In this document: positions 8,103 through 40,282 of the stretch, piece after piece
How positions within the stretch are numbered: the first letter of the stretch is position 1
How the letters are laid out: each line of letters opens with the position of its first letter
Assembly: GCA_046290225.1 (NCBI GenBank)
Contig: JBKAGE010000035.1
Location: forward strand, 160,001-224,000
Length of the DNA: 64,000 bases
Direction: 5' to 3'
From: Bradymonadia bacterium
GTDB taxonomy: Bacteria; Myxococcota_A; Bradymonadia; UBA7976; UBA1532
Position numbers and translations under genes: made by a program
Notes under the pieces: model-generated
The model's input: the letters and a program-made list of their open reading frames with translations, nothing else
What the model was told of the DNA's origin: nothing
The model's database searches: none

Positions 8103-11100
8103 ATGGCTCAGTCGCTGACACAGAAGCTCTTGCAGAGCGCCCTCGCCGCGGGGGTCATCACCCTTGCAGGTTTGAGCACCGCCTCTGCGAGCACGGGTTA
8201 CCACCACTGCGCCATCGATGATGCTGGCCAGCTCAAATGCTGGGGCTACAATGCCGGCGGCCAGCTCGGCCAGGGCAACACCACACAGTATGGTGATCAA
8301 GCCAACGAAGTCGCCAACATGTCGCCGGTGAACTTGGGCACCGACGCCCAAGGCCAACCGCTCACCGTACGCCAGATTGCCCATGGCTATCGGTTCTCCT
8401 GCGCCCTGCTCGAAGATGGTCGGTTGAAGTGCTGGGGCCTCGGCTCTTATGGCAGAACCGGTTACGGAGAGACGGCCACCCGTGGTGACAGCGCCAACGA
8501 GATGGGTGACAACCTGCCCTTCGTCGATCTCGGCACCGGCCGCACCGCGGTGCACATCATGAACACCCGGTACAGCGCCTGCGCGATTCTCGACGACGGC
8601 GGCGTCAAATGCTGGGGCCGCAACAACTATGGTCAGCTCGGTCAGGGCAACACCGTCAACCGAGGCGACGGCAACAACGAGATGGGTGAAAACCTCGCCT
8701 ACACCCCCCTTGGTACTGGACGCACCGCCGTGCAGATGTCCGGCGGGTACCAGCACAATTGCGCACTGCTCGACAACGGCGACGTCAAGTGCTGGGGCTG
8801 GGGTGGCTCGGGCATGTTGGGTCAGGGCAACTCGGCCAACATCGGCGACAGCGCCAACGAGCTGGGCGACAACCTGCAACCCATCGACCTGGGCACAAAC
8901 CGCACCGCCACCATGGTGAGTTCGGGCTATCAGTTCAACTGCGCGATCCTCGACAACGGTGGTGTCAAATGCTGGGGCTACAACGGCCACGGCGAGCTGG
9001 GCCAGGGCAACACCACCGCGCGCGGTGACAACGCCGGCGAGATGGGCGACAACCTCGCTTACACCAACCTCGGCACTGGTCGTACCGCCACCCACATCGC
9101 CTCGGGCAACAATCACACCTGCGCGATTCTCGACGACGGCGGTGTCAAGTGCTGGGGCTACAACCATCATGGCCAGTTGGGCCTCAACAACACCGCCTAC
9201 CGCGGCGATCATGCCAACGAGATGGGCGACAGCCTGCCCTACGTCAACCTCGGCGTTGGCCGCACGGCAGTGTCTCTCGGTGTGGGCTTCCACAGCACCT
9301 GCGCGATTCTGGACGACGACTCGGTAAAGTGCTGGGGCTACAACCCTTACGGCAACCTCGGCACCGGCAACACAGCCAGCTATGGCAACGCCAGCTTCAA
9401 CATGTCCAGCAACCCGGGGGTGAACCTTGGCGCCAACTTCGGCACCCCCATCGATCTGGACAACTCTGGCGGCATCACGTGCCCTGACACTGACAGTGAC
9501 GGCCTGTGCGACGAGGAAGACAACTGCCCACTGGCGGCAAACGTGAACCAGGCTGATACCGACGCTGATGGCCTGGGTGATGCGTGTGACGTGTGCGCCA
9601 ACGATGCGACGAACGACGCAGACGGTGATGGCATCTGCCAGGACGTGGACAACTGCATCACTGTGGCCAACGCCGACCAGACGGACAACAACGGTGACGG
9701 CTATGGCGATGCTTGCGTGAGCGTGAACGCCGACATCGACCCCACCGCTACCCTCGGCAACGACCTCGTCATCGGTGAGAACGCTGTCATTGGTGCGTTC
9801 TCTCGCATTGGCGATGGATCCACAGTGATGGGCAGCCTCGGCAGCAGCGTGGGCGTCGGCGCCGGCTCAGTCATCGGCGCAGGTGCAGACATCGAGAACG
9901 GCGTCAGCATCGGTGAAAACGTGGGCGTTGGTGCCAACACCACGATTGGTTTGATTGCCCGCATTGGCGACGGCGCCAGCATCGGTGCTGGTGTGAGCAT
10001 TGGTACTCAGAGTGACATCGGTGCTGGTGCAGTGATTCCCGACGGCGTGCAAATCGGCGAGATTTCGGGTGTGGGAGCCAACACTCAGTTGGGTGCCGGC
10101 TGTGTGTTGGGCAACAATGCTCGGTTCGGCGCCAATGGCTCCACTGGGACTGACTGCACCCTTGAATCGAATACCCAGGTAGGTGAAGGCTTCGTCTTCG
10201 GCAGCACGGTATACATCGAGTCGAACGCCACCATCGAGGCAGAGGCCGACTTTGGTGATGGTGTCCGCATCGGCGACTACGCTGTCGTGGGCCGAAACGC
10301 TCACCTTGCTGCAGGCACCATCCTCGCTTCTGGTGCAGAGCTGGGCGAGAACGCAACAGTAGGCGCTGACTCCGAGATTCGCGGCTCCCTGGGCAACGGC
10401 GTGACTCTGGGTGCTGACTGCTTCGTGGGCAACCAGAGCAGCCTCGCCGACAACTGCACCTTTGGAGATCGCGTCACCACCGGCATCTTCGTCACCCTCG
10501 GCGCTCGCTGCGATGTGGGTGAAGATTCAGCGATTTACGACGGCGTCACCCTCGGGGTCGACGGCAACATCGGTGCTCGCAGCACCGTGCTCTTCCGCGC
10601 GGCGATTGGTGACGAAGCCACGATTGGCACCGACACCATCATCGATGAGCAGGTCACCACGGGGAACCGCTTCACCCTCGGCAACAACAGCCGCCTGTGG
10701 CCCCGCTCCGGGTTCGGCAACGACGTCAGCATCGGCGCCAATGTGCTCATCCGCGACACCGCTGATGTCGGTCATGACGTGACCATTGAAGACGACGTCA
10801 CCATCTTCCCCGAGACCACCATTGGCGAAGGCACCACCATCCGTCAGGGCGTCGAAATCGGTGTGGCAGTGTGTGAGACCCAAGTTTGTGGTCAGGTCAC
10901 CATCGGCCAGTGCAACGACATCAACGCCGATGTGCAGCCTGGCAGCGACATGGGCGGCAACTGTGCCGACGGCAGCGAGGCTGCTCGTGCCGGGGCCTCC
11001 TGCCTCGACCTTCTGAACAACGGCGTCGGCGCTGACGGTGTGTACTGGGTCGACCCCGACGGCGACGGTGGTAACGCCGCCTTCGAGGCCTACTGCGACA

Positions 11101-11696
11101 TGACCACTGATGGTGGTGGTTGGACCCTGATCAGCAACCGCCGGGCCCATCAGAACAACACCGAAGCCTGCGGCAGCAACATTCAGCAGTTCTTCACCAA
11201 CGGCTGTGGCTCGGCGAATGCCATCGGTGCCAACGACAGCTACGCCCTCACTCAAGGGCAGCGCACCAGCATCGAACACTACGAGCTCATGAGCTTGCAG
11301 TACCTCAACGGCGCCCTCGACGCCGACGACGCCTTCATCGTCGAGAAGGCTGGCGGCTTTACTGATTTGTTCCCGAACACCAATGCCTCGACCAACATCC
11401 CCATGGTGCAGGTGTGCACCCTCGACCGCAGCACGTGCGACAGCAGCAATGTCTACTGGAAGTACATCGGCGACTACTGGTTCCACAGCTCCGAGTGTCA
11501 CTCGGGTTCCTCGGGCAGCACCAGCTACCGTGGCAACTATGGCCTCTGCCACAACGGCGCATCCAACAACGGCGCCGGCGCGAACTACTACTCCAACACC
11601 TTCAACGGCAACCGGGAGCACTACCAGGAGACGAAGCTGTGGGGTTACAACAGCCACGGCAGTGATGACTACCAGGAGCGCCTCTTCGTGCGCTGA
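8103..11696 (+). CDS. Array paralog P1: signal peptide, 7 RCC1-like repeats, TSP3 repeats, long hexapeptide beta-helix, YCDxxxxGGGW C-terminal domain
   Basis: GAGGAGG RBS; 7x KCWG repeats; [20 protein letters not shown]; [IVL]Gxxxx hexapeptides at about 9715-10925; [11 protein letters not shown]. Confidence 0.88.
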
Positions 11697-11850
11697 TGCC
11701 CCGCAGCCCACGCACCAGCACATCCCACCTGCACCAGGGCGCCCGGGCATCCAGTCATTCGAAAGAACTGATGTCTCTTTCTAGGGTACCCATTCATCAC
11801 ACATGCCGGTACACTCGCTGCATTCACCTGACCTGTGTGGAGTGTATGTC

Positions 11851-14583
11851 ATGGGTGTGAAGCTTCTCACCATCACCGGGGCCACCGCGCTGCTCTGTGC
11901 CAGCGCAGCTCAGGCGCAAACACCGTCGAGTTGTGCGAGCATCGTGCGCAACGGGCTGAGCAACGGCGACGGTGTGTACACCATCGACCCCGACGGGGCT
12001 GGTGGCAACGCGGCCTTCGATGTGTATTGCGACATGACCACCGACGGCGGTGGCTGGGCCATGCTCTACAACAGCGTCGGTGATCCTGGCGGCCAGACCA
12101 CGGCCTTCTGGCAGATCCCGTACGCAGAGCGCCTCAACGTGAAGGGCACCCCCAACCTCTCGAGCAACTTCTATGCGGGCTCTCTCTACATCTACGGTCG
12201 GGAGTACCGAGAGACCATCACCGATCTGAACGACACGACGGTGGAGGTGTACCGAGCCACAAGCCAGGGCATCAACACCTCCAACATGCACCTCACCAGC
12301 CCCGCCTTCGTCTCGGGCAACAGCAACTCCTACAGTTGTCAATTCGCCAGCGGGTGGGCGGCGTCCAACTACGACGCCGACGGCTATGGCGGGAACTGTG
12401 CGTCGGCCTACTCGAACGTCACCCAGCACTACTGCAGTTGCTGGTATTACAACCTCGGCTCAGATGCCGACGGCCCCCACTTTGATGGTGGCTGGGGCCC
12501 TCACTATCACTCGAGCACGGCGAGCTCCGACGGGCTGTCCACCGATGGCAGCGGATACTCTCGGATGAACGCCATCACCCGATGGACCCGTTGGGATGGC
12601 GGTGAAATCATCGTGCTTGATGCCGACAGTGATGGTGTGAACGACGACAACGACAACTGCCCGAACACCGCCAACGCTGATCAAGCAGATGGTGATGGTG
12701 ATGGGCAGGGTGATGTCTGTGATGCTTGCCCTGCTGATGCCACGAACGACGCAGACGGTGATGGTGTCTGCCAGGACGTCGACAACTGCCCCACCGTCGC
12801 CAACGGCGATCAGCTCGACGACAATGGTGATGGCTATGGCGACGCCTGCGTGAGCACTGCCGCCGACATCGCCGAAACCGCCACCCTCGGCAGCGACATC
12901 GTCGTCGGTGCTGATGCGATCATCGGGCCCTTCGCCCACATCGGCGACGGCGCCACGGTGAACGGCACCCTGGGCAGCAGCGTGCGCGTCGGCGCCGGCG
13001 CTGTCGTGGCTGCAGGTGCCAGCGTAGGCAACGGCGGCCGCCTCGGCGCCAACGTCGGTGTCGGCGCCAACTGCGCCCTCGGCGTGCTGGCGAACATCGG
13101 TGATGATGTGACGCTGGGCGCTGGCTGCTCTGTGGGCACCCGGGCGAGCATCGGCCCCCGGAGTAACCTCGGCGCCAACACTTCTGTGGGAGATCTCTCC
13201 ACCGTGGGCGAAGAGGCAAGCTTCGGCGACGGGGCCAGCGTGGGCAACAGCAGTAGCGTGGGCAACAGCGCCGAGCTGCTCGCCGGTGCCTCGGTGGGCT
13301 CGAACACCACCATCGGCCACACCCTGAGCCTCGGGGCCGGGGCTTCGGTGGCCACCAACTCCATCATCGGCGACGCAGCCATCATCGGCGCCAACGGCGT
13401 GGTGGGGAACTACGTCAACATCGGCGACAGCCTCGCCATGGGCGCCGACAGCGAGATCGCCGACGGCGCCAACCTCGGCCATGACGTCACCCTTGGCGCG
13501 AGCACCGAGGTCCGTGGCAGCCTCGGGGACAACGTCACCCTGGAAGACCGGGTGTTCATCGGGAACCAGAGCAGCGTCGGCGCCGACAGCCACCTGCACC
13601 ACGACGTGAGCCTCGGCATCTTCGTCAGCTTGGGCTCCAGCGTCATTGTCAACGACGACAGCGCCATCTACGACGGCGTCTCCATCGGCGCCAACAGCAC
13701 CCTTGGCCAGGCCACCAGCGTGCTGTTCCGCAGCACCATCGGTGCCCGAGCCAACATCGGTGACAGCGCCATTGTCGACGAGCAGATCACCATCGGCGAC
13801 GACTTCACCCTCGGCACCAACAGCCGGCTGTGGCCCCGCTCGACCTACGGCAGCACCGTCACCATCGGCAACAACGTGCTGATTCGCGACAGCGCCGATG
13901 TGGGCGACGACGTCACCATCGAGAACGATGCCATCATCTTCCCCGAGACCACCATTGGTCGGTCATCCATCATCCGCCAGGGCGTGGAGATCGGTGTAGC
14001 CACCTGCGAGACCCGCGTCTGCGGTCAGGTCACCATCGGTGACTGCACCGACATCGGCGCTGACATGCAGCCTGGCGCTGGGCAGCCGGGCACCTGCACA
14101 GTGCCTCCGGTGGTGTCTTCGGTGGAGCACTACGGCAGCGGGAACCGCGACGGGAACAACCTGCCCGCCACCAACCTCTTCGACGGCAACATCAACACCA
14201 AGAGTCGTTACCGCACTGGGGGCGATCGGTCCTACCGGATCGAGATCATCCTGCAGGGCCCGTCGACGCTCTCTGGTCTCGACATCTATGTGCCCCCAGG
14301 CCAGAACGCGGGCTACGCCGGCATCCAGATCTCCACCGACTCGGGGAACGGCTATGAGGTGCAGTACACCAACACCAACATGTTCGGCATCACCGGCCGC
14401 TTCGCAGGTGCAGAAGAGGTAGGCGGCCCGGGCTACGGCGCTGGTCATCAGGGCATTCAGGGCTGGTACAGCCACGCCTTCCCCCGCGTCGACGACGTCA
14501 CCCGCATTCAGATCATCACTGGCTGGAACGACGAAGCCAACGATGCTTGCTACTCCATGAACGAGATCGAACTCGTCGAGTAA
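11851..14583 (+). CDS. Array paralog P2: signal peptide, N-terminal YCDxxxxGGGW domain, TSP3, beta-helix, discoidin/F5-8-like C-terminal domain
   Basis: GGAG before ATG 11851; AQA-QT cleavage site; tip has NLFDGNINT and terminal SMNEIELVE. Confidence 0.85.
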
Positions 14584-14622
14584 CCCGCCTCCGCGACCCC
14601 CCACCCCTCTCGAGCTTCTCAC

Positions 14623-14670
14623 CTACATCATACTTTTGTGTGGTCAGGCGTAAGTCTGAACACCTACAAT
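14623..14670 (+). promoter_or_regulatory. Shared upstream motif A (before P3)
   Basis: CTACA-N11-TGTGGTC-N19-TACAAT. Confidence 0.55.
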
Positions 14671-14735
14671 GCTTAGGTCATCGCACACTGACCCAAAACG
14701 TCATTGCCACACATCACCATCGACACGAGGCAACC

Positions 14736-17700: not shown

Positions 17701-18218
17701 CTGATGATGGTGGCCCCATCGCGCCGTTCCAGGCCTACTGCGACATGACCACCGACGGCGGCGGCTGGACCATGATCGGGAACGGCACGTGGTACAGCAG
17801 CACCGCCAACTATGTGGCTCCGGGCCAGGGGAATGTTCAGCTGGCCACCACCACCATCGACGCGCTGCGGACCAACTCCGAGGACCTGTTCCGCGTGGGC
17901 CAGGGGAACACCCGCATGTTCATCCGGGACTCGGGCGCTCTCATCGAGCAGGGCCTGCACTACTGGCGCTCCACCGCCAACGATCTGGAATGCTCCACGG
18001 GCTACGACGCGGTCACCTCGAACACGATGACCGACGTGCCAAACAACCGCCTCACTTGCGATGCGTTCGGTGTGGGCTCACACACGTGTGGCTCGGCGAA
18101 CGGCTGGATCCTGATCCACGTGGTGGATGCCTTTAACTGGAACGGTACTCACCCTTGTAGCTTCGGCGTGGCCTACTACCCCACCAACCAGGCCCTCAAC
18201 ACACTCTGGTTGCGCTGA
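14736..18218 (+). CDS. Array paralog P3: signal peptide, 7 RCC1-like repeats, TSP3, beta-helix, short YCDxxxxGGGW tip
   Basis: GAGG before ATG 14736 (MDTRR); 7x KCWG; same core as P1. Confidence 0.88.
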
Positions 18219-18291
18219 CGGCACACACCTCCTGGTCAACGCCCGCCTGATAATCCCCCCTCTTTTCAGCCTGATTCAGCGCCATTTAGGC

Positions 18292-18339: not shown

Positions 18340-18377
18340 GACTCCGCTTGCATACTCCCGATGCTCACGGAGGACCG

Positions 18378-25813: not shown

Positions 25814-25936
25814 GCTCTCTCCCCCATTTGGGCCATCGCATTGCGCTTGAGCCCCCTACATGATTTGCCTGCGACAACGGTCCACGTGCCGAATCCCTAT
25901 GGGGTCCAGCTCACCACAGTCGCCAGGCATCACTCC

Positions 25937-27406
25937 ATGACCCTTCCTCCTCCGCTCTACCCTCTCCGCGTCAACGCACTCAACGACTCACCGTTACGCA
26001 GCGATGGGCGCTATGTGTTGTATTGGATGATCGCCGCCCGGCGCCCCCGATATAACTTCGCCCTGGAGCGCGCTCTCGAGCTGGGGCGGCAGCTCGATCG
26101 GCCCGTACTGGTCTTCGAGCCACTGCGCATCGGATATCGCTGGGCCTCTGATCGCATACATCGATATGTCCTCGATGGCATGAAGGCCAATCACACCGCC
26201 TTCATGGCTGCTGGTGTGCGCCATTACCCCTACGTCGAACCCGAAGCGGGTGCAGGCAAAGGGTTGCTCGAAGCCCTTGCAGAGCACGCGTGCGCCGTCG
26301 TCACCGACGAGTTCCCATGCTTCTTCCTCCCCCGAATGGTCCGCGCAGCAGGTGAGCGTCTGTCAGTGTACGCCGAGCAGGTCGACGGCAATGGCCTCAT
26401 GCCCCTGAGAGCCGCCGAGCGAGTGTTCACGACGGCGGCAAGCTTCCGCCGCCATCTGCACAAGACACTGCCCGATCACCTGGGACATTGGCCCATGGCT
26501 GATCCGCTCGTCGATCTCGCGCAACCCATGGCCGAGATCCCCGAGCAGGTGAGTCATCAGTGGCCCATGGCCGATCTTGCCGATGTAGAGGCTCTGATCG
26601 AGCGCTTGCCCATCGATCACACAGTGGCTCCGGTGGCTGAGCGTGGAGGCTTCGTCGAAGGCACCCGGGCCATGAGCCGGTTCATCGAGCAACGCCTCTC
26701 GCGCTACGGCGACGATCGCAACCACCCCGACGAAGCAGGGGCGAGCCAGCTGTCGGGCTGGCTGCACTTTGGCCATGTGTCGGCCCATGAGGTCGTGAAG
26801 CGGATCTTCGAGGCGGAAGACTGGTCCCCGGCCCGCCTGGGCCCCAAGCCCACGGGCAAACGAGAGGGCTGGTGGGGCCTGAGCGCACCTGCCGAAGCCT
26901 TCATGGACGAGATCGTCACCTGGCGGGAGGTGGGCTTCACCTTCACCTTCCAGCGGCCCGACGATTACGATCAGTTCGAGTCGCTCCCGGCCTGGGCGCT
27001 GACCACCCTTGCCGAGCACGCTGACGACGAGCGCCCCCACCTCTACACGCTCGAGCAGCTCGACAGCGCCCGCACTCATGACGAGATCTGGAATGCTGCT
27101 CAACGACAACTCAAGCGCGACGGACGCATCCACAACTACCTGCGCATGCTCTGGGGCAAGAAGATCCTGCAGTGGAGCCCAACGCCTCAAATGGCTCTCG
27201 AGCGCCTCATCGAATTGAACAATCGCTACGCCATCGATGGCCGTGATCCCAACAGCTACAGCGGCATCTTTTGGGTGCTGGGCCGCTTCGATCGCGCATG
27301 GGGACCAGTACGGCCCATCTTCGGCAAGGTGCGCTACATGACCTCGGAGAGCACAGCGAAGAAAGTGCGTCTCAAGAAGTACCTGCACACCTACCGCCGC
27401 CTATAG
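25937..27406 (+). CDS. phr: Deoxyribodipyrimidine photolyase, class II-like
   Basis: YVLYWM..ARR..YNFAL, SQLSGWLHFG, IHNYLRMLWGKKILQW, IDGRDPNSYSGI.W..G.FDRAW, IFGKVRYM. Confidence 0.92.
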   Translation: MTLPPPLYPLRVNALNDSPLRSDGRYVLYWMIAARRPRYNFALERALELGRQLDRPVLVFEPLRIGYRWASDRIHRYVLDGMKANHTAFMAAGVRHYPYVEPEAGAGKGLLEALAEHACAVVTDEFPCFFLPRMVRAAGERLSVYAEQVDGNGLMPLRAAERVFTTAASFRRHLHKTLPDHLGHWPMADPLVDLAQPMAEIPEQVSHQWPMADLADVEALIERLPIDHTVAPVAERGGFVEGTRAMSRFIEQRLSRYGDDRNHPDEAGASQLSGWLHFGHVSAHEVVKRIFEAEDWSPARLGPKPTGKREGWWGLSAPAEAFMDEIVTWREVGFTFTFQRPDDYDQFESLPAWALTTLAEHADDERPHLYTLEQLDSARTHDEIWNAAQRQLKRDGRIHNYLRMLWGKKILQWSPTPQMALERLIELNNRYAIDGRDPNSYSGIFWVLGRFDRAWGPVRPIFGKVRYMTSESTAKKVRLKKYLHTYRRL

Positions 27407-27427
27407 CCTCACTTGTCCCTTCAAATC

Positions 27428-30500: not shown

Positions 30501-30634
30501 ACGGCAGCACGTGCGGCACCTTCTATGACAACGGCTGGTGGTTCCACAGCTGCTGGACCATCAACCCCATCTACGGGGATGGTCGACCTTACTGGGGCAG
30601 CTACTACAACTCCATCACCCTCTGGCTCCGCTGA
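27506..30634 (+). CDS. Array paralog P6: signal peptide, two copies of an unrecognised ~155-aa domain, TSP3, beta-helix, fibrinogen C-terminal domain
   Basis: ASA-QT cleavage site; internal duplication 27578-28036 / 28061-28519; [25 protein letters not shown]. Confidence 0.88.
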
Positions 30635-30732
30635 GACAACACACAACACCCTCCCTGTAAAAAAACCCCCTTCCTCATTCATCCCACACTCAGGTACACT
30701 GTACGGGCCTTATTTACCCTTCCGGAGTATGT

Positions 30733-33684
30733 GTGATGGGGTTCAAGCTGATTTCACTCGTAGCGGCCACGGGTGCCATGTGGTCCGTGAGCGCCCAGGC
30801 GCAGACGCCGACGAGCTGCGCGAGCATTCTGAACAATGGGCTGAGCAACGGCGACGGTGTGTACACCATCGACCCCGACGGAAACGGTGCCAACGCCCCC
30901 TTCAGCGTGTGGTGTGACATGACCACCGACGGCGGTGGCTGGACGGTCATCGCCAACAACGACAACGGTGACGTGGAGCCCAGCGGCTGTTGGGCCCGCA
31001 TCGGCAGCCACTCCACCTTCGTTTGCGGCAACATCTCTCAGGGTGAGGACTTCGTCGTTCCCGCATATGGCATGGTCTTCGACGAGCTCGTCTGGGCCAC
31101 CTACGACAACGACGACTTCTCCGACATCAGCGCATACCAGTACATGCTCTGGAACAACGACCAGACCATCCCCAACAACAACGGTCGCTGGTCGCTCAGT
31201 CCCAACAGCAACACTCAGAACCTCAACGGCTACGCTGCTCAGAGCAAGATCTACTGCAACTACAACGGCACCAGCAGCCTGCAGTCCGTGGGCAACGAGA
31301 TCCCCCAGGGGGGTGACTACGGCAACAACCCCGTCACCATCTTCGACGAGATCAACAACTTCGACAATCCCGGCCACATGAGCTTCACCGAGCATGACCA
31401 GCACGGCGGTGGCAGCAGCATGAACGGCCTCGACGACTTCCAGGACGGCCACGGCTGTGGTGACAACTGGCAGCCCAAGGCTGATCGCGGCAAGTCCAGC
31501 TACATCATGATCCGCGGTGAGGATCCTCAGGTGCTGGTGTTCGACGCTGACAGTGATGGGGTGAACGACGACGTCGACAACTGCCCCAACAATGCCAACG
31601 CTGATCAGGCCGATGGTGATGGCGACGGCAGTGGTGATGTCTGCGACGCCTGCCCTGCAGACGCCACGAACGATGCTGATGGTGATGGTGTCTGCCAGGA
31701 CGTGGACAACTGCCCCACTGTCGCCAACGCTGATCAGGCAGATGACAACGGCGACGGCTACGGTGACGCCTGTGTGAGCACCGCCGCCAACATCGACCCC
31801 ACAGCCACCCTGGGCAACGACATCATCATTGGCGCCGCAGCAAACGTCGGCTCTTACGCCCGCATCGCGGACGGGGCGACGGTGAACGGGTCCGTGGGCA
31901 ACAGTGTGGTGGTGGGCGCAGGCTCTGTGGTGCCCGCAGGTGCCACGGTGGAGAACGCCGTGGTCATCGGGGCCAACGTGGGCCTGGGCACCGGCTGTAC
32001 CGTGGGCATCCTCGCCAACATCGGCGACAACGTCACCGCCGGTACGAACTGCGCCTTCGGGAGCAAGGCTGAGGTGGGTGCCGGAAGCACCTTCGGCAAC
32101 AACACCAGTGTGGGCACCCTCGCCATCGTCGGTGATGGCTCCAGCTTCGCTGATGGTGCCACCCTCGGGAACAACAGCCAGGTCGGCGCCAGCGCTGACC
32201 TGCTCGCTGGTTCGAGCATTGGCAGCAACACCACCATCGGTCACACCCTCAGCCTCGGTGCTGGTGCCATCATCGAAGGCAACACCGAGATCGGCGACGA
32301 GGCCATCATCGGTGCGAACGGCATCATCCGCAGCTACGTGACCATCGGGAACAGCCTCGCCATGGGTGCTGGCGCCGAGTTCGCTTCCGGTGCCACTGCC
32401 GGTGACGACGCCACTGTCGGTGAAAACACCGAGATTCGTGGTGAAATCGGCAACAGCGTCACTCTTGAGGATCGCGTCTTCATCGGCAACCAGAGCTCTG
32501 TGGGCGACAACGGCCACATGCACCACGACACCACGCTGGGCATCTTCGTCACGGTGGAGTCAGGCTGTACGATTCACGACGACTCTGCTCTCTACGACGG
32601 CGTCACTCTCGGGGCCGACAGCACTGTGGGCGAGCGCTCCACCATCCTCTTCCGCAGCACCATCGGCGCACGGGCCAGCATTGGTGACGATGTGATTCTG
32701 GACGAGCAGAACACTGTGGGCACCGACCTCGTGCTGGGGAACAACAGCCGCCTCTGGCCCCGAAGCACCTATGGCAACGACGTCACCATCGGCGCCAACG
32801 TCCTCATTCGCGACAGCGCTGACGTGGGCGATGAGGTGACCATCGAAGACGACGTCATCATCTTCCCCGAGACCACCATCGGTCAGGAGACCACCATCCG
32901 TCAGGGTGTGGAGCTGGGTGTGGCCGTGTGTGAGACCCAGGTCTGTGGTCAGGTCACCATCGGCGGCTGCCGTGACGTGGCGGCCAACATCGGCGCCGGT
33001 GGCAGTGATGCGGGCGCCTGCGAGACGGGTCTGCTCATCGACATCGACACGGGTGCACGTGAATGGGCAGACAACACCTACGCCACCAGCTGCAACGAGT
33101 ACCGCAACCCCTCACAAGGCCCCTACGCCTACGTGGACAACATCGGCGATGGCCTCTACACCATCGACCCCGACGGCCTCGGCGGCCTCGACCCCTTCAT
33201 CGTCACCTGCGACATGACCACCGACGGCGGTGGCTGGACCCGCATCGGCTACTCTGCTGATCTCGCCTTCACCCAGCACTTTGGTGGCGGTGACATTCGC
33301 CGTTGGCTGCCCAGCGACTTCTCTCTTGAGCTCTCCGATGCTGAAATCAACGCCATCCGCGCAGTGTCTTCCGAGGGCAAGCAGACCTACGTGGGCCAGT
33401 GCCGGGGCGTGCTCCACTACGACTACCAGAACGGCAACTACGCCTACGCTGTGGGCTTCGAGTTCCAGACGGGCGCCGTGACCAACAACAGCACCTCCAA
33501 CATCGGCAGCGGTGTCTCCGTCACCTCCGATGGTTGCGAGAACAACGACAACGTGAGCCGCACCACCGTCTTCGAGATCAACAACCTCGCGGTGCCCGTC
33601 ATCAACATCAGCACCCGCGACAACGGTGACAACGGTGAGCACTTCGGCAGCCCCCTCACCAGCAACCCCGCCTGGCTGCGCTGA
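30733..33684 (+). CDS. Array paralog P7: signal peptide, N-terminal YCDxxxxGGGW domain, TSP3, beta-helix, COLFI-like tip
   Basis: [23 protein letters not shown] head; [11 protein letters not shown] tip. Confidence 0.86.
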   Translation: MMGFKLISLVAATGAMWSVSAQAQTPTSCASILNNGLSNGDGVYTIDPDGNGANAPFSVWCDMTTDGGGWTVIANNDNGDVEPSGCWARIGSHSTFVCGNISQGEDFVVPAYGMVFDELVWATYDNDDFSDISAYQYMLWNNDQTIPNNNGRWSLSPNSNTQNLNGYAAQSKIYCNYNGTSSLQSVGNEIPQGGDYGNNPVTIFDEINNFDNPGHMSFTEHDQHGGGSSMNGLDDFQDGHGCGDNWQPKADRGKSSYIMIRGEDPQVLVFDADSDGVNDDVDNCPNNANADQADGDGDGSGDVCDACPADATNDADGDGVCQDVDNCPTVANADQADDNGDGYGDACVSTAANIDPTATLGNDIIIGAAANVGSYARIADGATVNGSVGNSVVVGAGSVVPAGATVENAVVIGANVGLGTGCTVGILANIGDNVTAGTNCAFGSKAEVGAGSTFGNNTSVGTLAIVGDGSSFADGATLGNNSQVGASADLLAGSSIGSNTTIGHTLSLGAGAIIEGNTEIGDEAIIGANGIIRSYVTIGNSLAMGAGAEFASGATAGDDATVGENTEIRGEIGNSVTLEDRVFIGNQSSVGDNGHMHHDTTLGIFVTVESGCTIHDDSALYDGVTLGADSTVGERSTILFRSTIGARASIGDDVILDEQNTVGTDLVLGNNSRLWPRSTYGNDVTIGANVLIRDSADVGDEVTIEDDVIIFPETTIGQETTIRQGVELGVAVCETQVCGQVTIGGCRDVAANIGAGGSDAGACETGLLIDIDTGAREWADNTYATSCNEYRNPSQGPYAYVDNIGDGLYTIDPDGLGGLDPFIVTCDMTTDGGGWTRIGYSADLAFTQHFGGGDIRRWLPSDFSLELSDAEINAIRAVSSEGKQTYVGQCRGVLHYDYQNGNYAYAVGFEFQTGAVTNNSTSNIGSGVSVTSDGCENNDNVSRTTVFEINNLAVPVINISTRDNGDNGEHFGSPLTSNPAWLR

Positions 33685-33772
33685 GACTCAGACCGCACCT
33701 GACCCATCCCAACAGAGGTGTGTTTAAGCGCCTCTTTCCTACCCACCCCTTTCAATCTGTCGCACCCATCAT

Positions 33773-33798
33773 TACACTGTGAGGGTCTTATCTACCCT
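33773..33798 (+). promoter_or_regulatory. Shared upstream motif B (before P8; also 30695-30720 and 36806-36830)
   Basis: TACACTGT-N2-GGGYCTTATYTACCC: -10-like hexamer followed by a small inverted repeat. Confidence 0.55.
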
Positions 33799-33810
33799 TC
33801 ATGAGGTTGT

Positions 33811-36717
33811 ATGATGGCTTTCAAATGGATTGTCATGGCGGGCGCGACGGCATGCCTCTGGACCGGTGTGGCCCAGGCACAGACCGCCACGAGCTGCTCC
33901 AGCATTCTGCGCAACGGTTTGAGCGTCGGTGACGGTGTGTACACCATCGACCCTGATGGGGTCGGCGGCCGAGATGCCTTCGACGTGTACTGCGACATGA
34001 CCACCAATGGTGGTGGCTGGGCCATGCTCTACAACAGCGTTGGTGATCCTGGCGGCCAGACCACGGCCTTCTGGAACATCCCCTTCGCCGAGCGCTTCGA
34101 CACCAAGGGCACTGCCGCTGAAGCCAGCAACTTCTACGCAGGCTCCCTGTACCTCTATGGCACCGAGTACCGAGACGAGATCACCGATCTCGGCAACACG
34201 ACTGTAGAGGCCTTCCAGGCCACGGTGCAGGGCTTCAACAGCAACACCATGAACTTCACGAGCCCCACCCGGGTCTCGGGGAACGACACCATCTACAGCT
34301 GCCAGTTTGCAGGCAGCTGGGCCTCCCCGGACTACCCCGCAGGAGGCAACTGCGCGACATCTTACTCCAACGTCTCTCAGCACTACTGCGGTTGCTGGCA
34401 CTACAGCCTGGGCTCCAACGCCGAAACCAACCGTTTTGACAGCGGTTGGGGGCCTCACCTCCAAACGAGCGTGGCGAGTACTCTGGGCCTGTCGAACGAC
34501 GGAACAGCCTACTCCCGAGTGAACCGCATCGTACGGTGGGCACGCTGGGATGATGGTCAGATCATCGTGCCCGACGCCGACGGTGATGGGGTGAACGACG
34601 ACGTCGACAACTGCCCCAACGCCGCCAACGCAGATCAGGCCGACGGCGACGCTGATGGTGTGGGTGATGTGTGTGACGCCTGCCCGGCAGACGCCACGAA
34701 CGATGCAGATGGCGACAGTGTCTGCCAGGACGTGGACAACTGCCCCACTGTCGCCAACGCTGATCAGGCAGACGACAACGGTGATGGCTACGGCGACGCC
34801 TGTGTGAGCCCGCTGGCGAACATCCCCGAGACCGCCACCCTGGGCAATGACATCGTCATTGGCCCCGATGCGGTCATCGGCACCTACGCACAAATCGGCG
34901 ATGGCGCCACGGTGAACGGCTCGGTGGGCAACAGCGCAGTGATCGGCGCCGGCTCGGTTGTGCCGGCAGGTGTGACCGTAGGCAATGGCGCTCGCCTGGG
35001 CGCCAATGTGGGTCTCTCTTCAGGTTGCTCTGTGGGCGTACTCGCACAGTTGGGCGACAACATCACCGCCGGTATGAACTGCGCCTTCGGGAGTAAGGCC
35101 GAGGTCGGCGCAGGCAGCACCTTCGGCAACAACACCAGCGTCGGTACTCTGGCCATCGTCGGTGATGGCTCCAGCTTCGCCGATGGCGCCACCCTCGGGA
35201 ACAACAGCCAGGTCGGCGCCAGCGCTGATCTCCTCGCCGGTTCGACCATCGGCAGCAACACGCGTGTGGGCCACACCCTCAGCCTCGGTGCTGGTGCCAT
35301 CATCGAAGGCAACACTGAGATCGGCGACGAGGCGATCATCGGGGCGGGTGGCATCGTGCGCAGCTACGTGACGATTGGGAACAGCCTGGCCATGGGTGCT
35401 GGTGCTGAGTTCGCAGCGGGGTCAAGTGCCGGTGATGACGCCACTGTGGGCGAGAACACTGAGATTCGTGGCGAAATCGGCAACAACGTGACTCTGGAAG
35501 ACCGGGTGTTCATCGGCAACCAGAGCTCTGTGGGCGACAACAGCCACATGCACCACGACACCACTCTCGGCATCTTTGTCACCGTGGGCTCTGGCGTCAC
35601 CATCCACGACGACAGCGCCCTCTTCGACGGGGTCACCCTCGGCGACGACAGCACCGTGGGCGAGCGCACCACGATTCTGTTCCGGAGCACCATCGGCGCC
35701 CGTGCCAGCATTGGCGACGACGTCATTCTCGACGAGCAGAACACTGTGGGCACCGACCTTGTGCTGGGCAACAACAGCCGTCTCTGGCCTCGGAGCACCT
35801 ACGGCAACAACGTCAACATCGGCGCCAACGTGCTGATTCGCGACACCGCCGACATCGGCAGCGACGTCACCATCGAGGACGACGTGATCATCTTCCCCGA
35901 GACCACCATCGGCGAAGAGACCATCATTCGTCAGGGCGTCGAGCTTGGCGTGGCTGTGTGTGAGACCCAGGTGTGTGGACAGGTCACCATCGGCGGTTGC
36001 CGTGACGTGGCGGGCAACATCGGCGCCGGCGGCAGCAACGATGGGTCGTGCGAGACGGGGCTCATCATCGACATCGACACGGGTGCACGTGAGTGGGCGG
36101 ACAACACCTACGCCACCAGCTGCAACGAATACCGCAACCCCTCGGTGGCGCCTTACACCTATGTCGACAACATCGGCGATGGCCTCTACACCATCGACCC
36201 CGACGGCCTCGGTGGCATCGACCCCTTCATCGTCACCTGCGACATGACCACCGACGGCGGTGGCTGGACCCGCATCGGCTACTCTGCTGATCTCGCATTT
36301 ACCCAGCACTTTGGAGGCAGTGACGCCCGCCGCTGGCTGCCCAGCGACTTCTCTCTCGAGCTCTCCGATGCTGAAATCAACGCCATCCGGGCTGTGTCGT
36401 CCGAGGGCAAGCAGACTTATGTGGGCCAATGCCGAGGCGTGCTCCACTACTTCCACACGAGCGGCAACAACTACGCCTATGCTGCAGGCTTCGAGTTCCA
36501 GGACGGCACCGTCACGCCCAACGCCACCGCCAACATCGGCAATGGTGTCACCGTCACCACTGACGACTGCCGTCTCAACGACAACGTCAACCGCACCACC
36601 GTCTTCGAGATCGACAACCTCGCGGTGCCCGTCGTGAACATCAACACTCGCGACAACGGCAACAGCGGTGAGCACTTCGGCAGCCCCCTCACCAGCAACC
36701 CCGCCTGGATGCGCTGA
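33811..36717 (+). CDS. Array paralog P8: P2-type head, TSP3, beta-helix, P7-type tip
   Basis: Head aligns to P2/P9 ([19 protein letters not shown]); tip nearly identical to that of P7. Confidence 0.86.
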   Translation: MMAFKWIVMAGATACLWTGVAQAQTATSCSSILRNGLSVGDGVYTIDPDGVGGRDAFDVYCDMTTNGGGWAMLYNSVGDPGGQTTAFWNIPFAERFDTKGTAAEASNFYAGSLYLYGTEYRDEITDLGNTTVEAFQATVQGFNSNTMNFTSPTRVSGNDTIYSCQFAGSWASPDYPAGGNCATSYSNVSQHYCGCWHYSLGSNAETNRFDSGWGPHLQTSVASTLGLSNDGTAYSRVNRIVRWARWDDGQIIVPDADGDGVNDDVDNCPNAANADQADGDADGVGDVCDACPADATNDADGDSVCQDVDNCPTVANADQADDNGDGYGDACVSPLANIPETATLGNDIVIGPDAVIGTYAQIGDGATVNGSVGNSAVIGAGSVVPAGVTVGNGARLGANVGLSSGCSVGVLAQLGDNITAGMNCAFGSKAEVGAGSTFGNNTSVGTLAIVGDGSSFADGATLGNNSQVGASADLLAGSTIGSNTRVGHTLSLGAGAIIEGNTEIGDEAIIGAGGIVRSYVTIGNSLAMGAGAEFAAGSSAGDDATVGENTEIRGEIGNNVTLEDRVFIGNQSSVGDNSHMHHDTTLGIFVTVGSGVTIHDDSALFDGVTLGDDSTVGERTTILFRSTIGARASIGDDVILDEQNTVGTDLVLGNNSRLWPRSTYGNNVNIGANVLIRDTADIGSDVTIEDDVIIFPETTIGEETIIRQGVELGVAVCETQVCGQVTIGGCRDVAGNIGAGGSNDGSCETGLIIDIDTGAREWADNTYATSCNEYRNPSVAPYTYVDNIGDGLYTIDPDGLGGIDPFIVTCDMTTDGGGWTRIGYSADLAFTQHFGGSDARRWLPSDFSLELSDAEINAIRAVSSEGKQTYVGQCRGVLHYFHTSGNNYAYAAGFEFQDGTVTPNATANIGNGVTVTTDDCRLNDNVNRTTVFEIDNLAVPVVNINTRDNGNSGEHFGSPLTSNPAWMR

Positions 36718-36841
36718 GCGCCCCTCACCTGCCATGGTTCTGGGGTTTGATTAAATCCCCACACGCTCTCCCGCCTCACACCTTCCCATCGAGCCTACCT
36801 ATCATTACACTGTAAGGGTCTTATCTACCCCTACGGAGACT

Positions 36842-39800
36842 GTGATGGGGATCAAACTGATCATGTGTGCAAGCGCAGCCACCATGTTGTACGTGGGCAT
36901 GGCTCAAGCGCAGACGCCGACGAGCTGCTCGAGCATTGTGAACAATGGGCTGAGCAACGGCGACGGTGTGTACACCATCGACCCCGACGGGGCCGGCGGC
37001 AACGCGGCCTTCGATGTGTATTGCGACATGACCACCGACGGCGGTGGCTGGGCCATGCTCTACAACAGCGTTGGTGATCCAGGTGGCCAGACCACGGCCT
37101 TCTGGCAGTTCCCATACGCAGAGCGCCTCAATGTGAAGGGCACCCCCAACCTCTCGAGCAACTTCTATGCAGGCTCTCTCTACATTTATGGAACAGAGTA
37201 TCGGGAGACTTTCACCGACATCGCTGGCACCACCGCCGAGGCCTACCGAGCGACGGCGACGGGCTTCAACACCACCAACATGCGGTTCACCAACCCCACT
37301 CTCCTGACAGGCACTGACAATGGCTATGCCTGCCAGTTCGCCTCTGGGTGGTCTTCGACGAACTATGACGGTGATACCAATGGTGGCAACTGTGCATCAT
37401 CATATTCGAGTGTGACTCAGCACTATTGTTCGTGCTGGACCTACAATCTCGGATCTGATGCCGACGCAGATCGCTTCGATGGTGGCTGGGGGCCCCATAT
37501 CTTCGGCAGCCGCCTCGATCCGCTCGGGCTCGTAAGCGACGGCACTCGATACAGCCGCCTGGGCGCTGTCACACGGTGGGTGCGTTGGGACGACGGCCAG
37601 GTCATCGTGCTCGACGCCGATGGTGATGGGGTGGTCGACAACGACGACAACTGCATCAATGACGCGAACGCTGATCAGACTGATGGCGATGGGGATGGTC
37701 AGGGGGACGTCTGCGACGCCTGCCCCTCGGACGCCACCAATGATGCCGATGGTGATGGCGTATGTCAGGACGTGGACAACTGCCCCACGGTGAGCAACGC
37801 CAACCAGGCAGACGACAACGGTGATGGCTACGGCGACGCCTGTGTGAGCCCGCTGGCGAACATCCCCGAGACCGCCACCCTGGGCAATGACATTGTCATT
37901 GGCCCTGATGCGGTCATCGGGCCTTACAGCCAGATCGGCGATGGCGCCACGGTGAACGGCTCAGTGGGCAGCAGCGTGGTCATCGGCGCGGGCTCGGTGG
38001 TCCCTGCGGGCGCCTCGGTGGAAAACGCCGCGCGTCTGGGTGCCAATGTCGGGCTCGGCACCGGCTGCACGGTGGGCGTGCTCGCTCAGATCGGCGACAA
38101 CGTCACCGCAGGGGCAAACTGCGTATTCGGGAGCAAGGCCAATGTAGGGGCCAACTCCAGCTTCGGCGCCAACACCAGCGTGGGTGCGCTCGCTCAGATC
38201 GGTGAAAGCACGAGCTTTGCCGATGGGGCCAGTCTGGGGAGCAACAGCATCTTGGGCGCCAGCGCCGATCTGCTCGCCGGTTCGAGCATCGGTAGCAACA
38301 CGCGTGTGGGCCACACCCTCAGCCTCGGTGCTGGTGGCCTCATCGAGAGCAACACGGTGATCGGCGACGAGGCGATCATCGGGGCAGGTGGGATCGTGCG
38401 GAGCTACGTGACGATCGGCAACAGCCTGGCCATGGGTACTGGTGCTGAGTTCGCAGCGGGGTCAAGTGCCGGTGATGACGCCACAGTGGGCGAAAACACT
38501 GAAATTCGTGGTGAAATCGGCAACAACGTGACTCTGGAAGACCGGGTGTTCATCGGCAACCAGAGCTCTGTGGGCGACAACAGCCACATGCACCACGACA
38601 CCACCCTCGGCATCTTCGTCACCGTGGGCTCTGGCGTCACCATCCACGACGACAGCGCCCTCTTCGACGGTGTCAGCCTCGGCGACGACAGCACCGTGGG
38701 TGAGCGCTCCATCATTCTGTTCCGTAGCACCATCGGCGCCCGTGCCAGCATCGGCGACGACACCATCATCGACGAAGCCAACACCATCGGCGACGACCTC
38801 ACCCTGGGCAGTAACAGCCGCATCTGGCCCCGGGGCACCTTCGGCCACACCGTCACCATGGGTGCCAATGTGCTGGTGCGCGACACCGCAACCATCGGGG
38901 ATGAAGTCACCCTCGAAGACGATGTGGTGTTGTTCCCCTCAACCACCGTGGGCGACGAGACCATCATCCGTCAGGGTGTCGGCCTCGGCGTAGCCAACTG
39001 CCCCACCCAGCGGTGTGGTCAGGTCACCATCGGCGGCTGTCTCGACGTGGCCACCGACGTCGATCCTCTGGGCACTGTGGACGGCCAGTGTGCTGGTGGC
39101 GACAGCCCTGAGAACCCCGGCGCCACCTGCTACAGCATCTTGCAACAAGATCCCGACGCTGAAGACGGCTTCTACTGGATCGATCCCAACGGCCGGGGGG
39201 TCGAGGACGCGTTCCAGGTAGAGTGCGACATGACCACTGACGGTGGCGGCTGGACGATCCTGCCCCACGATGCCATGGGCGTGCTCACCAATGATGACTC
39301 TGCGGGCTGGCCCAATGAGCTGGTCCGTCGCTACGACTACGGCATCCCCAACGACCAGTTCGAAGCCCTGGTGAACAACGCCCTCGAAGACCGGCAAAAC
39401 TTCTACAAAGAATGCCGCGACTCGCTGATCAACCAGGAGTACGGCGGCCAGCACAGCCGCTATGAGACCCTGAACGGGCAACTCTTCGACTCCACCATCG
39501 CTTACTTCGGCGGCGCTCAGACCGCATGTGATCTCAACGATCCGGTGGATCGTGTGGTGGACTACACCTTCGACAGCACTGAGAACATTCCGATCCTGGC
39601 TCTCTTCGGTGGGGACTCCGACGCTGGCGTCGAGATCTCGCGCTACCGCCTCGGCGCCTACCTGTCTCGTGGGCCGGGCAACCCGCCGCTCGGTGCTCTG
39701 GGCGTCGATCCGCTCAACCCCGCCGACAGCTGCCTGCACCTGCTCAACGAAGCCCCCACCACCGAGAGCGGCACGTACTGGATCGATCCCAACCTGGGCA

Positions 39801-40282
39801 GCGTGAGCGACGCGTTCCAGGTGGAATGCGACATGACCACCGACGGTGGTGGCTGGACCATCGTGGAGCACGACGCCATGGGCGTGCTGACCCCCGACGA
39901 CAACGTGGGCAACCCGGACCAGCTGGTCCGAGCCTACGATTACGGCACCTCGGACGCCCAGCTGGCAGCGCTCTCTGCAGCAGCCACGGTGAGGCGGCAG
40001 GACTTCTACAAAGAGTGCCGTGGTGCACTGATCAACATCGAGGTGCCCGGGGCCACACAGTACAACCGTTATGAGACACCCAATGGGCAGTTCTTCAACT
40101 CCACCATCGCCTACTTCGGCGGTGCCCTCACCGCCTGCGACAACAACGATGCTGTCGATCGCGTGGTGGACTACACCTTCGAGAACACCGAGAACATCCC
40201 CATCGTGGGCCTCTACGGCGGCGACTCGGATCACGGGTCGGAGATCGCCCGTTACCGCCTCGGCGCCTTCATCGTCCGCTGA
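36842..40282 (+). CDS. Array paralog P9: P2-type head, TSP3, beta-helix, two tandem Caspr/COLFI-like YCDxxxxGGGW tips
   Basis: Three [10 protein letters not shown] motifs; duplicated tip at about 39101-39670 and 39716-40282. Confidence 0.86.
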   Translation: MMGIKLIMCASAATMLYVGMAQAQTPTSCSSIVNNGLSNGDGVYTIDPDGAGGNAAFDVYCDMTTDGGGWAMLYNSVGDPGGQTTAFWQFPYAERLNVKGTPNLSSNFYAGSLYIYGTEYRETFTDIAGTTAEAYRATATGFNTTNMRFTNPTLLTGTDNGYACQFASGWSSTNYDGDTNGGNCASSYSSVTQHYCSCWTYNLGSDADADRFDGGWGPHIFGSRLDPLGLVSDGTRYSRLGAVTRWVRWDDGQVIVLDADGDGVVDNDDNCINDANADQTDGDGDGQGDVCDACPSDATNDADGDGVCQDVDNCPTVSNANQADDNGDGYGDACVSPLANIPETATLGNDIVIGPDAVIGPYSQIGDGATVNGSVGSSVVIGAGSVVPAGASVENAARLGANVGLGTGCTVGVLAQIGDNVTAGANCVFGSKANVGANSSFGANTSVGALAQIGESTSFADGASLGSNSILGASADLLAGSSIGSNTRVGHTLSLGAGGLIESNTVIGDEAIIGAGGIVRSYVTIGNSLAMGTGAEFAAGSSAGDDATVGENTEIRGEIGNNVTLEDRVFIGNQSSVGDNSHMHHDTTLGIFVTVGSGVTIHDDSALFDGVSLGDDSTVGERSIILFRSTIGARASIGDDTIIDEANTIGDDLTLGSNSRIWPRGTFGHTVTMGANVLVRDTATIGDEVTLEDDVVLFPSTTVGDETIIRQGVGLGVANCPTQRCGQVTIGGCLDVATDVDPLGTVDGQCAGGDSPENPGATCYSILQQDPDAEDGFYWIDPNGRGVEDAFQVECDMTTDGGGWTILPHDAMGVLTNDDSAGWPNELVRRYDYGIPNDQFEALVNNALEDRQNFYKECRDSLINQEYGGQHSRYETLNGQLFDSTIAYFGGAQTACDLNDPVDRVVDYTFDSTENIPILALFGGDSDAGVEISRYRLGAYLSRGPGNPPLGALGVDPLNPADSCLHLLNEAPTTESGTYWIDPNLGSVSDAFQVECDMTTDGGGWTIVEHDAMGVLTPDDNVGNPDQLVRAYDYGTSDAQLAALSAAATVRRQDFYKECRGALINIEVPGATQYNRYETPNGQFFNSTIAYFGGALTACDNNDAVDRVVDYTFENTENIPIVGLYGGDSDHGSEIARYRLGAFIVR

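Follow-up and report, generated by a model that had tools for sequence, protein, structure and literature searches.

A 64,000-nt stretch of a Bradymonadia contig (the window) carries nine paralogous genes on its plus strand between positions 8103 and 40282, and poses the question of what a bacterium might do with so many long, apparently exported proteins that are alike in the middle and different at their ends. A sequence-only reading had described a nine-gene array of double-headed beta-helix fibres, possibly a polymorphic recognition or adhesin system. Our analysis leads, with a little more than even confidence, to a composite answer: the proteins would be secreted, non-enzymatic and likely trimeric rods with exchanged heads at one or both ends, acting as combinatorial two-ended binders.

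The array and the genome-wide family

The shared plan proved real. The nine proteins (910-1246 aa counted from likely starts) each have a signal-peptide-like N-terminus, called by eye inspection and hydropathy from a basic start, a hydrophobic stretch and an Ala-x-Ala site, and each carries TSP_3 (E 1e-5 to 1e-11) and Hexapep (E 1e-36 to 1e-45) matches between N- and C-terminal ends that vary across the nine (Table 1). All nine are acidic (Asp+Glu 12-14%). The gene count stood, but a class II photolyase gene splits the array into five plus four. Motifs related to the promoter-like element upstream of g3, which was picked post hoc, lie upstream of g1, g4, g5 and other RCC1-headed members; sigma-70 and terminator scans stayed at chance level (4 against 3.8 and 7 against 10.1, respectively), and an Rfam scan gave 0 matches.

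Table 1. Positions in the window of the nine family genes, their parts and neighbouring elements
Feature	Extent	Strand	N-terminal part	TSP3	388-aa core	C-terminal end or remark
g1, 1197 aa	8103..11696	+	signal 8103-8189; RCC1 head, 7-blade, 8190-9485	9486-9722	9723-10886	Cys cap + GGGW fibrinogen-like head, 10887-11696
g2, 910 aa	11851..14583	+	GGGW head	12619-12855	12856-14019	cap + weak F5/8 type C (discoidin-like) head (F5_F8_type_C E 1.8e-4, below cut-off)
Promoter-like element upstream of g3	14641..14670	+				
g3, 1160 aa	14736..18218	+	RCC1 head 14826-16130	16131-16367	16368-17531	cap + GGGW head
g4, 1246 aa	18378..22118	+	RCC1 head 18468-19787	19788-20024	20025-21188	cap + GGGW head
g5, 1172 aa	22295..25813	+	RCC1 head	23696-23932	23933-25096	cap + complete fibrinogen (FReD) head
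Photolyase (class II)	25841..27406	+				non-family; TIGR00591 E 1.6e-103, below cut-off
g6, 1042 aa	27506..30634	+	two ~150-aa unnamed domains, 27572-28528	28529-28762	28763-29926	cap + complete FReD head
g7, 982 aa	30736..33684	+	GGGW head 30802-31542	present	31780-32943	cap + COLFI-like head
g8, 968 aa	33811..36717	+	GGGW head (g2/g9 type)	34573-34809	34810-35973	cap + COLFI-like head, variable part 83% to g7
g9, 1145 aa	36845..40282	+	GGGW head	37613-37849	37850-39013	cap + two tandem GGGW heads

A search of the genome with a core HMM matched 49 ORFs, so the nine-gene array is not unique: 34 are complete strict members, 6 are cut by contig ends and 9 are divergent, and 5 further contig-end fragments carry the same heads. 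With the contig-end fragments, the family amounts to about 199 kb, or 2.3% of the genome. The N-terminal domain of the 34 complete members is RCC1 in 22, GGGW in 7 and something else in 5, the 28 C-terminal heads fall into 21 classes, and other members bear legume-lectin, LamG and Ig/PKD heads. The double-headed layout describes 28 of the 34, in which the rod is internal, but the remaining 6, including proteins of 3537 and 5203 aa, stop 18-22 aa past the Cys cap and lack a second head.

A predicted hexapeptide rod of constant length

From the TSP3 anchor to the Cys cap, the core measures 388 aa without gaps in all nine array proteins at 48-93% identity, and it keeps this length in 45 of 46 complete members (12 of the 46 from outside the genome) at 35-93% identity. 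Its repeat fits the hexapeptide [LIV]-[GAED]-x-x-[STAV]-x over 64 strands, or about 21 coils, and all 60 of the listed matches among PDB sequences were hexapeptide proteins, most of which form trimers. Conservation clusters at one of the three corners (hexapeptide position 3 of the C-terminal half, 0.97 compared with 0.51 and 0.52), where the edge forms an ordered ladder with aromatic and paired charged residues; an ice-binding Thr-x-Thr face was not seen in the core face table. From the sequence pattern, this conserved edge is likely the trimer axis, and we consider it probable that the rod forms a trimer. Ca2+-bound TSP3 repeats would cap the rod at its N-terminus and the Cys motif at its C-terminus, with a predicted fixed length of ~10 nm.

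The signals for handedness diverge, with the sequence pointing to a left-handed helix and both AlphaFold2 core models wholly or largely right-handed and fitting right-handed helices rather than the LpxD type; the second model has low confidence at 230-290. A bias of AlphaFold2 toward right-handed helices is reported (PMC12775518). The best fit of the first model was EtpA (Z 22.6, rmsd 2.7, 398 aligned, 10% identity), and the high Z of YdcK (20.8, rmsd 11.8, 268 aligned) is likely a mirror match. Foldseek returned nothing clear for the first model (best E 4.9e-4 with TM 0.15) and nothing at 0.001 for the second, and the ESM Atlas gave no usable match for the g6 core region or P0158. TpsA and autotransporter beta-helical adhesins (EtpA, Ag43, pertactin) share with the family a long secreted beta-helix and the best fit to the first model, a fit that hinges on a handedness AlphaFold2 may miss, but no TPS or autotransporter domain was found here. 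A hexapeptide beta-helix, known mainly from cytoplasmic enzymes, would be at work as an extracellular spacer module; the TSP3-capped rod occurs in several phyla, is not listed as a unit by Pfam or NCBIfam, and, if rigid and two-ended, is a candidate scaffold for bispecific binders.

Heads and their exchange

The fibrinogen domains proposed earlier are complete in the window only in g5 and g6 (Fibrinogen_C E 7e-40 and 2e-40), and most other heads share with them just the ~45-aa GGGW subdomain (NF040941). Heads matched the FBG domains of tenascin-R and ficolin-3 (E 4e-32 and 3e-30) and the collagen C-propeptide (Pfam COLFI, E 2e-7), and the RCC1 heads matched RCC1/UVR8 propellers; the g4 C-head has a weak FIBCD1/intelectin likeness limited to its N-terminal part, and that of g2 had 0 matches among PDB sequences. 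The FReD heads of g5 and g6 retain the acidic Ca-loop motif, while the Cys-His pair of tenascin, whose His has a role in the acetyl-group binding site, corresponds to Cys-Trp in g6 and to Cys-Tyr in g5. A binding role for most heads is suggested by analogy, through GGGW-subdomain matches.

Pairwise comparisons show exchange of heads between cores, between both ends and between stalk types, in line with the earlier view of variable binding heads. The cores of g3, g4 and g5 are 91-93% identical and their C-heads 19-22%, and g1 shares its head (67%) with a paralog on another contig (C41) whose core is 52% identical. The N-head of g7 is 69% identical to the C-terminal head of an outside protein, an end switch, and the g6 N-head domain has counterparts, at 55-63% identity, in tail-fibre-like proteins from a sister genus. 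An independent record, L011, has the g6 head at 81-95% identity on a core that, at 69-80%, lies nearer to other paralogs. Conversion tracts of 503, 113 and 92 nt were found in the cores, each with 0 of 2000 codon permutations; the longest, in g5, is identical to a paralog on contig C82. Three further "identical tracts" (226, 148 and 122 nt) were dropped as overlapping ORF extents of the same DNA. Because the core tree comes from a quick method, with 16 of 41 branches open, and N-head labels need 12 changes on it compared with 15.7 when shuffled, we claim pairwise swaps only.

The label "polymorphic", if taken to mean hypervariation or kin recognition, was not supported. Nine of the eleven C-heads in outside records fall into classes present in the source genome. 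Tip loops of the propellers are rich in Tyr and His and diverge about twice as much as the remainder, but 12 pairs gave no sign of positive selection there (pN 0.15-0.35 below pS 0.34-0.71, with synonymous sites near saturation). No signature of a diversity-generating retroelement (DGR) or a shufflon was seen: reverse-transcriptase matches were confined to contig C79, which bears no family gene, and the 25 longest of 319 inverted repeats were 70-82% identical and inside coding repeats. Judged from these comparisons, the diversity is a reshuffling of an old, shared head toolkit and not hypervariation, and since the head types are old and shared across organisms, kin recognition is disfavoured.

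Searches of 40 relatives, 112 class genomes, 400 phylum genomes (scoring 4 candidates in each) and 33 metagenome loci, samples that overlap, found no full-length 388-aa core. Relatives carry the same heads on stalks of the tail-fibre-like or DUF4215 type, and in the sister genus G006 the g6-type domain sits on stalks matching PHROG tail-fibre families, which agrees with the earlier comparison to phage-like fibres; the earlier comparison to ficolins was supported as well. That sister genera mount a single pool of heads on three unrelated kinds of stalk clearly illustrates how adhesins evolve by modules. A shorter TSP3-capped rod has expanded separately in another genus (G172/G300; 93 and 59 matches), where it has an ordered ladder of its own, and TSP3-capped rods are also joined to unrelated passengers (LamG, PKD, FG-GAP, NHL, trypsin, GH15).

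Proposed two-ended binding and its alternatives

Taken together, the rod is very probably a non-enzymatic spacer with mobile heads, and the family is likely a set of interchangeable parts with which to seize other cells or particles. Our best reading, by analogy, is that these proteins work like the MAT fibres of Bdellovibrio or like ficolins, on an undescribed scaffold. Export would proceed by Sec and then type II secretion (GspD is present in the genome). If the trimer is parallel and built around the conserved edge, three heads at each end would confer avidity, and because the proteins are without a membrane anchor, one end may hold the own cell or matrix and the other a foreign surface, such as prey, a particle, or the glycans or proteins of a neighbour. 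Head exchange between paralogs would likely occur through recombination in the shared core. Recognition of foreign surfaces is favoured, if less firmly than trimerization; prey specifically as the target is a tentative suggestion. The predatory lifestyle of the host is assumed from its lineage, itself deduced from MYXO-CTERM. The fibrinogen-like, COLFI-like and propeller heads make up a bacterial library that could be screened for ligands, making prey or particle recognition by myxobacterial-type predators a testable question. In a bolder and rather unlikely extension, the length-locked, barcode-edged core would be a surface for in-register assembly that permits mixed trimers across paralogs and would serve as a recombination hub reshuffling N- and C-heads, so that about fifty genes could yield thousands of bispecific ficolin-like bridges from predator to prey or particle. 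The phylum would then have expanded, on at least two independent occasions, a TSP3-capped hexapeptide rod acting as a platform for extracellular display that no catalogue lists.

The mosaic adhesive trimer (MAT) fibres of Bdellovibrio bacteriovorus are described (PMC10769870) as 21 signal-peptide fibres with a conserved, beta-rich ~130-aa N-domain, intertwined beta-prism stalks, S74 chaperones (13 of 21) and diverse C-terminal tips, proposed to recognize surfaces broadly. Both systems are genome-wide repertoires with diverse tips (21 MATs and 34 or more family members), but here the constant part is central, a single-chain hexapeptide solenoid with both ends varying, the tips are RCC1, FReD or COLFI-like, and no MAT-type ~130-aa domain follows the signal peptide, where RCC1, GGGW or other domains stand in the 34. 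None of the nine array proteins matched S74 or a tail-fibre family. Ficolins, tachylectin-5A, tenascin FBG, intelectins and the collagen C-propeptide resemble the family in the complete FBG domains of g5 and g6, the COLFI-like heads of g7 and g8, the common GGGW subdomain and the stalk-plus-head layout; the family differs in being bacterial, in its extra N-terminal head, in lacking a collagen or coiled-coil stalk (no collagen domain or Gly-X-Y run in the nine), and in that most heads carry unnamed sequences in place of the ligand subdomain. As the sequence-only reading had supposed, no description of the architecture was found in NCBIfam, Pfam, the Atlas or the main texts of the open-access literature.

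Counting against two-ended binding, the rod is C-terminal in 32 of 50 cases in the wider family, as sorting or anchoring tags are. It is conceivable, though unlikely, that a dedicated receptor or an envelope polymer is what the conserved edge binds, the heads being passengers displayed at the cell by possibly monomeric proteins; the unrelated passengers, the 6 of 34 members ending at the cap (the 3537- and 5203-aa proteins among them), the separate ladder of the G172/G300 rods, and the absence of any other anchor (no MYXO-CTERM or transmembrane tail on family members; no Pfam or NCBIfam match to a C-terminal beta-barrel anchor or N-terminal TPS domain on the nine) fit such a tag. Terminal sorting signals, however, are not expected to be internal in 28 of 34 members or N-terminal, as in the seven G172/G300 loci where the cap is seen, and the recurrence of the same heads on other stalks suggests a replaceable spacer.

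We give a still smaller chance to self-binding matrix or sheath cross-linkers, an aggregate glue for cell-cell cohesion in place of receptors for foreign surfaces. Two-ended, anchorless, acidic proteins with likely Ca-binding TSP3 repeats recall animal TSP3/FBG/COLFI matrix proteins, and a weak match links the TSP3 part to MtsC (NF047638), a cohesion protein that belongs to the TSP3 proteins of myxobacteria, in what is presumably the same phylum; yet these matches score 42-57 bits against a cut-off of 350, the family lacks the MYXO-CTERM anchor, and the head classes and promoter-like motifs exceed what a glue needs. A defensive role as released lectins or decoys, directed at phages, grazers or competitors, is improbable: ficolin-like heads are pattern-recognition modules in animals, the proteins have no anchor, and PHROG matches place GGGW domains in phage proteins as well, but the nine have no toxin or enzyme domain and the conservation of head classes across organisms is unlike an arms race.

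A role for the core as an exported enzyme (acyltransferase or gamma-carbonic anhydrase) is largely refuted, in keeping with the non-enzymatic rod first proposed: the core shares the hexapeptide repeat and its best sequence matches with LpxA, LpxD, GlmU, NeuD, gamma-CA and YdcK, but every enzyme-model match lies below cut-off (LpxD 125-146 bits against 207), a conserved catalytic or Zn-binding His is absent (no His column of any kind exceeds 27% among 44 cores), inserted loops are lacking, and the core is longer than the matched stretches, follows a signal peptide, is capped by TSP3 and Cys motifs, and would serve as a spacer. The one DNA sequencing run matched (share 0.06; no RNA runs were listed), from seawater, contained a joint at 31615-34573 (side 40, depth 2.4) that was set aside because it may be another paralog. 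An assembly artefact in the array or mosaics is scarcely credible, for although 11 family ORFs reach a contig end and the tract of 503 identical nt might reflect repeat collapse, none of the nine reading frames is broken, identity among them is mostly 48-93%, the architecture and length recur in 12 outside proteins, L011 holds an independent head-core swap, and pieces from the seawater run differ from the window by 1-7 positions in 230-324 nt.

The array and its family in the genome

The sequence-only reading described nine same-strand paralogs (g1-g9) at 8103-40282 with a shared plan and variable domains at both ends. All nine are present on the + strand (910-1246 aa from likely starts), although the run is interrupted after g5 by a class II photolyase gene; each has a signal-peptide-like N-terminus (called by eye and hydropathy only), an N-head, TSP3 repeats, a hexapeptide core, a Cys cap and a C-head, and both heads vary as claimed. 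Among the signal peptides at 14736, at 27506 and in several paralogs, some start twin-arginine-like and the rest with single or variant pairs only; export may go by Sec or Tat. A promoter-like motif, chosen post hoc, lies 58-94 nt 5′ of g1, g3, g4 and g5 and of RCC1-headed paralogs; of the 43 upstream regions in the family, 12 contain it, and it has 13 matches among 3285 long ORFs (11 of them family genes) and goes along with the N-terminal module. The 1149-aa ORF behind the array had no Pfam or NCBIfam match.

Neighbours of the array and giant family members
Feature	Location	Remark
Unannotated protein, MYXO-CTERM-like tail	window 6638-7978	immediately 5′ of array
AAA+/M41 FtsH-like protein without evident N-terminal membrane anchor, then 1149-aa ORF	window 40345-46203	
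Fpg-like glycosylase gene and Eco57I/TaqI-type DNA methyltransferase gene	window 46632-49096	convergent
Giant member	C44:74949-90560	ends with rod
Giant member	C36:69437-81334	ends with rod
Giant member	C77:71967-82580	ends with rod
Giant member	C36:234826-244200	ends with rod

Across the 8.58-Mb genome, the core HMM matches 49 ORFs (34 both strict and complete, 6 truncated at contig ends and 9 divergent), and 5 further contig-end fragments bear family heads, together ~199 kb or 2.3% of the genome; the four giants span 3124-5203 aa from stop to stop. Because 11 family ORFs run into contig ends, other arrays were probably split by assembly. Family members account for 26 of 31 ORFs with GGGW, a ~45-aa fibrinogen-like subdomain (NF040941), and 25 of 30 propeller ORFs, most others being contig-end fragments, and in this genome both heads are nearly restricted to the hexapeptide scaffold. 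At least 20 MYXO-CTERM tails and one GspD above cut-off point, we infer, to a Myxococcota bacterium that has type II secretion. Neither MYXO-CTERM tails nor transmembrane stretches occur in any family member. Short near-identical pieces in a seawater run and a g6 orthologue on a Pacific MAG contig make a marine habitat likely.

A predicted rod of constant length

The core is 388 aa in all nine array genes, aligns without gaps at 48-93% identity, and forms two subtypes (g1, g3, g4 and g5 versus g6-g9), with g2 separate. With divergent and truncated ORFs left out, anchor-to-cap spacing is the same in 33 of 34 of the genome's own members and in 12 of 12 outside proteins, at pairwise identities of 35-93%. 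Its 64 strands (62 hexapeptides and two of four residues) correspond to ~21 coils and a length of roughly 10 nm at the usual beta-helix rise of 4.8 Å per coil. Generic Gly-Asp/Asn turns make up two of the three corners. Along the third runs an ordered ladder that reads Asn, Asn, Asn, Tyr over the first half and then RG, GNQS, GIF, YDG, LFR, DEQ, WPR, RD and P; conservation of these residues across 44 cores is mostly 85-100%. No core column exceeds 27% His, which excludes usual acyltransferase or gamma-CA chemistry. In a PDB sequence search, 60 of 60 among the matches listed were hexapeptide proteins, with LpxD on top.

AlphaFold2 models the core as a continuous solenoid, with pLDDT 90.7 for model 1 (5 sequences) and 80.4 for model 2 (40 sequences), which dips at 230-290. 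Model 1 matches right-handed EtpA at rmsd 2.7 over 398 aligned residues (Z 22.6), and against YdcK and LpxD it gives Z 18-21 but rmsd of about 12, a mirror-image pattern; model 2 repeats these matches for residues 1 to about 290, the remainder barely aligning. AlphaFold2 is reportedly biased to right-handed solenoids (in portions of PMC12775518 and 10.1101/2025.03.18.644030) and overconfident on repeats (in part of PMC11795689). We consider a left-handed helix likely, though only tentatively.

Heads and their exchange

N-heads of the 34 members comprise 22 seven-bladed RCC1 propellers, 7 GGGW fibrinogen-like domains and 5 others, including legume-lectin and Ig/PKD. C-heads fall into 21 classes among 28 members and are absent in 6: the heads of g5 and g6 are complete FBG domains (matching tenascin-R at E 4e-32 and ficolin-3 at E 3e-30), those of g7 and g8 are collagen C-propeptide-like and that of g2 weakly discoidin-like, and most remaining heads have only the GGGW subdomain in common, followed by unnamed sequence. 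Propeller tip loops, rich in Tyr/His, diverge about twice as much as other positions, with pN < pS.

By sequence, g3, g4 and g5 combine near-identical cores (91-93%) with unrelated C-heads (19-22%). The same head sits on distant cores in two pairs, g1 with a C41 gene (67% in the head, 52% in the core) and g3 with a C81 gene (60%, 39%), and in a C83 gene a propeller like that of g5 (69%) is combined with a core like that of g7 (85%). Three stretches of full identity inside cores, of 503, 113 and 92 nt, are each longer than in any of 2000 codon permutations, and identical runs of at least 55 nt occur in 21 of 528 core pairs. In L011, an independent record, head DNA is 81-95% and core DNA 69-80% identical to g6, the core being closer to other paralogs. 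This 2.5-kb contig (JAKVBV010000077.1; 83% identical to g6, 64% GC) belongs to a MAG with the label Phycisphaerales and was probably mis-binned there from a relative. The g7 N-head matches the C-head of an outside protein, P0029 (69%). As regards fast polymorphism, the polymorphic system proposed earlier is disfavoured: 9 of the 11 C-heads known from outside proteins belong to classes found in this genome. No DGR or shufflon sign was found. Head diversity would thus represent an old toolkit under recombination.

Other stalks, putative role and the wider rod module

No full-length core was found in overlapping samples of 40 relatives, 112 class genomes and 400 phylum genomes; GGGW heads are present in 72 of 113 class genomes. 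In G006, of the same family, 53 GGGW matches occur, in the fetched stretches within tandem genes whose stalks resemble PHROG tail-fibre families (E 2e-23), and the g6 N-domain recurs on two such proteins (55-63% identity). Tandem signal-peptide proteins in G006 (L090-L093, L098) and a second relative, G008 (L097), have a conserved N-domain, a phage-tail-fibre-like stalk and GGGW/FG-GAP tips, a MAT-like layout; our genome has 7 matches to the N-part of this scaffold. In G038 and G068 (L094-L096), tandem lipoprotein-like genes combine DUF4215 repeat stalks with two GGGW heads per gene. One head pool is thus displayed on three unrelated stalks (hexapeptide rod, tail-fibre-like and DUF4215), our main argument that the rod would be a spacer and the heads would bind.

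We lean slightly toward reading the family as two-ended binders, exported as putative secreted proteins without an anchor, likely trimeric, and diversified by recombination that would occur inside the core. That the rod instead serves as a docking or sorting tag is rather improbable, and a role as matrix glue still more so; defensive lectins deserve very little credence. As two-ended binders, the proteins would resemble in their way of working ficolins and Bdellovibrio MAT fibres (as portrayed in part of PMC10769870), but tests defining either system came out negative, as did those for LbH enzymes, autotransporters and the myxobacterial cohesion protein MtsC. That the sequence-only reading did not place the architecture in any described family agrees with our search of open-access main texts, in which no description was found; the checked portions of 10.1101/2023.11.21.568195 and PMC7616799 do not contain it.

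The rod itself is part of a wider unnamed module. Among 134 weaker matches, a TSP3 cap directly precedes the hexapeptide run in 50; these runs vary in length (median 216 aa), and are C-terminal in 32 of the 50, on many passengers. The records that contain them carry the labels Delta-, Gamma- and Alphaproteobacteria and Acidobacteriota. A ~230-aa TSP3-capped rod has 93 matches in G172 and 59 in G300, both from a single genus in a different family. Of 16 loci retrieved, 7 showed the cap, and in these the rod is N-terminal, with variable C-heads (GGGW and others) and an ordered ladder of its own; this expansion is independent. One of these loci (L099, L101-L117) has the rod-head junction motif of g7 and g8.
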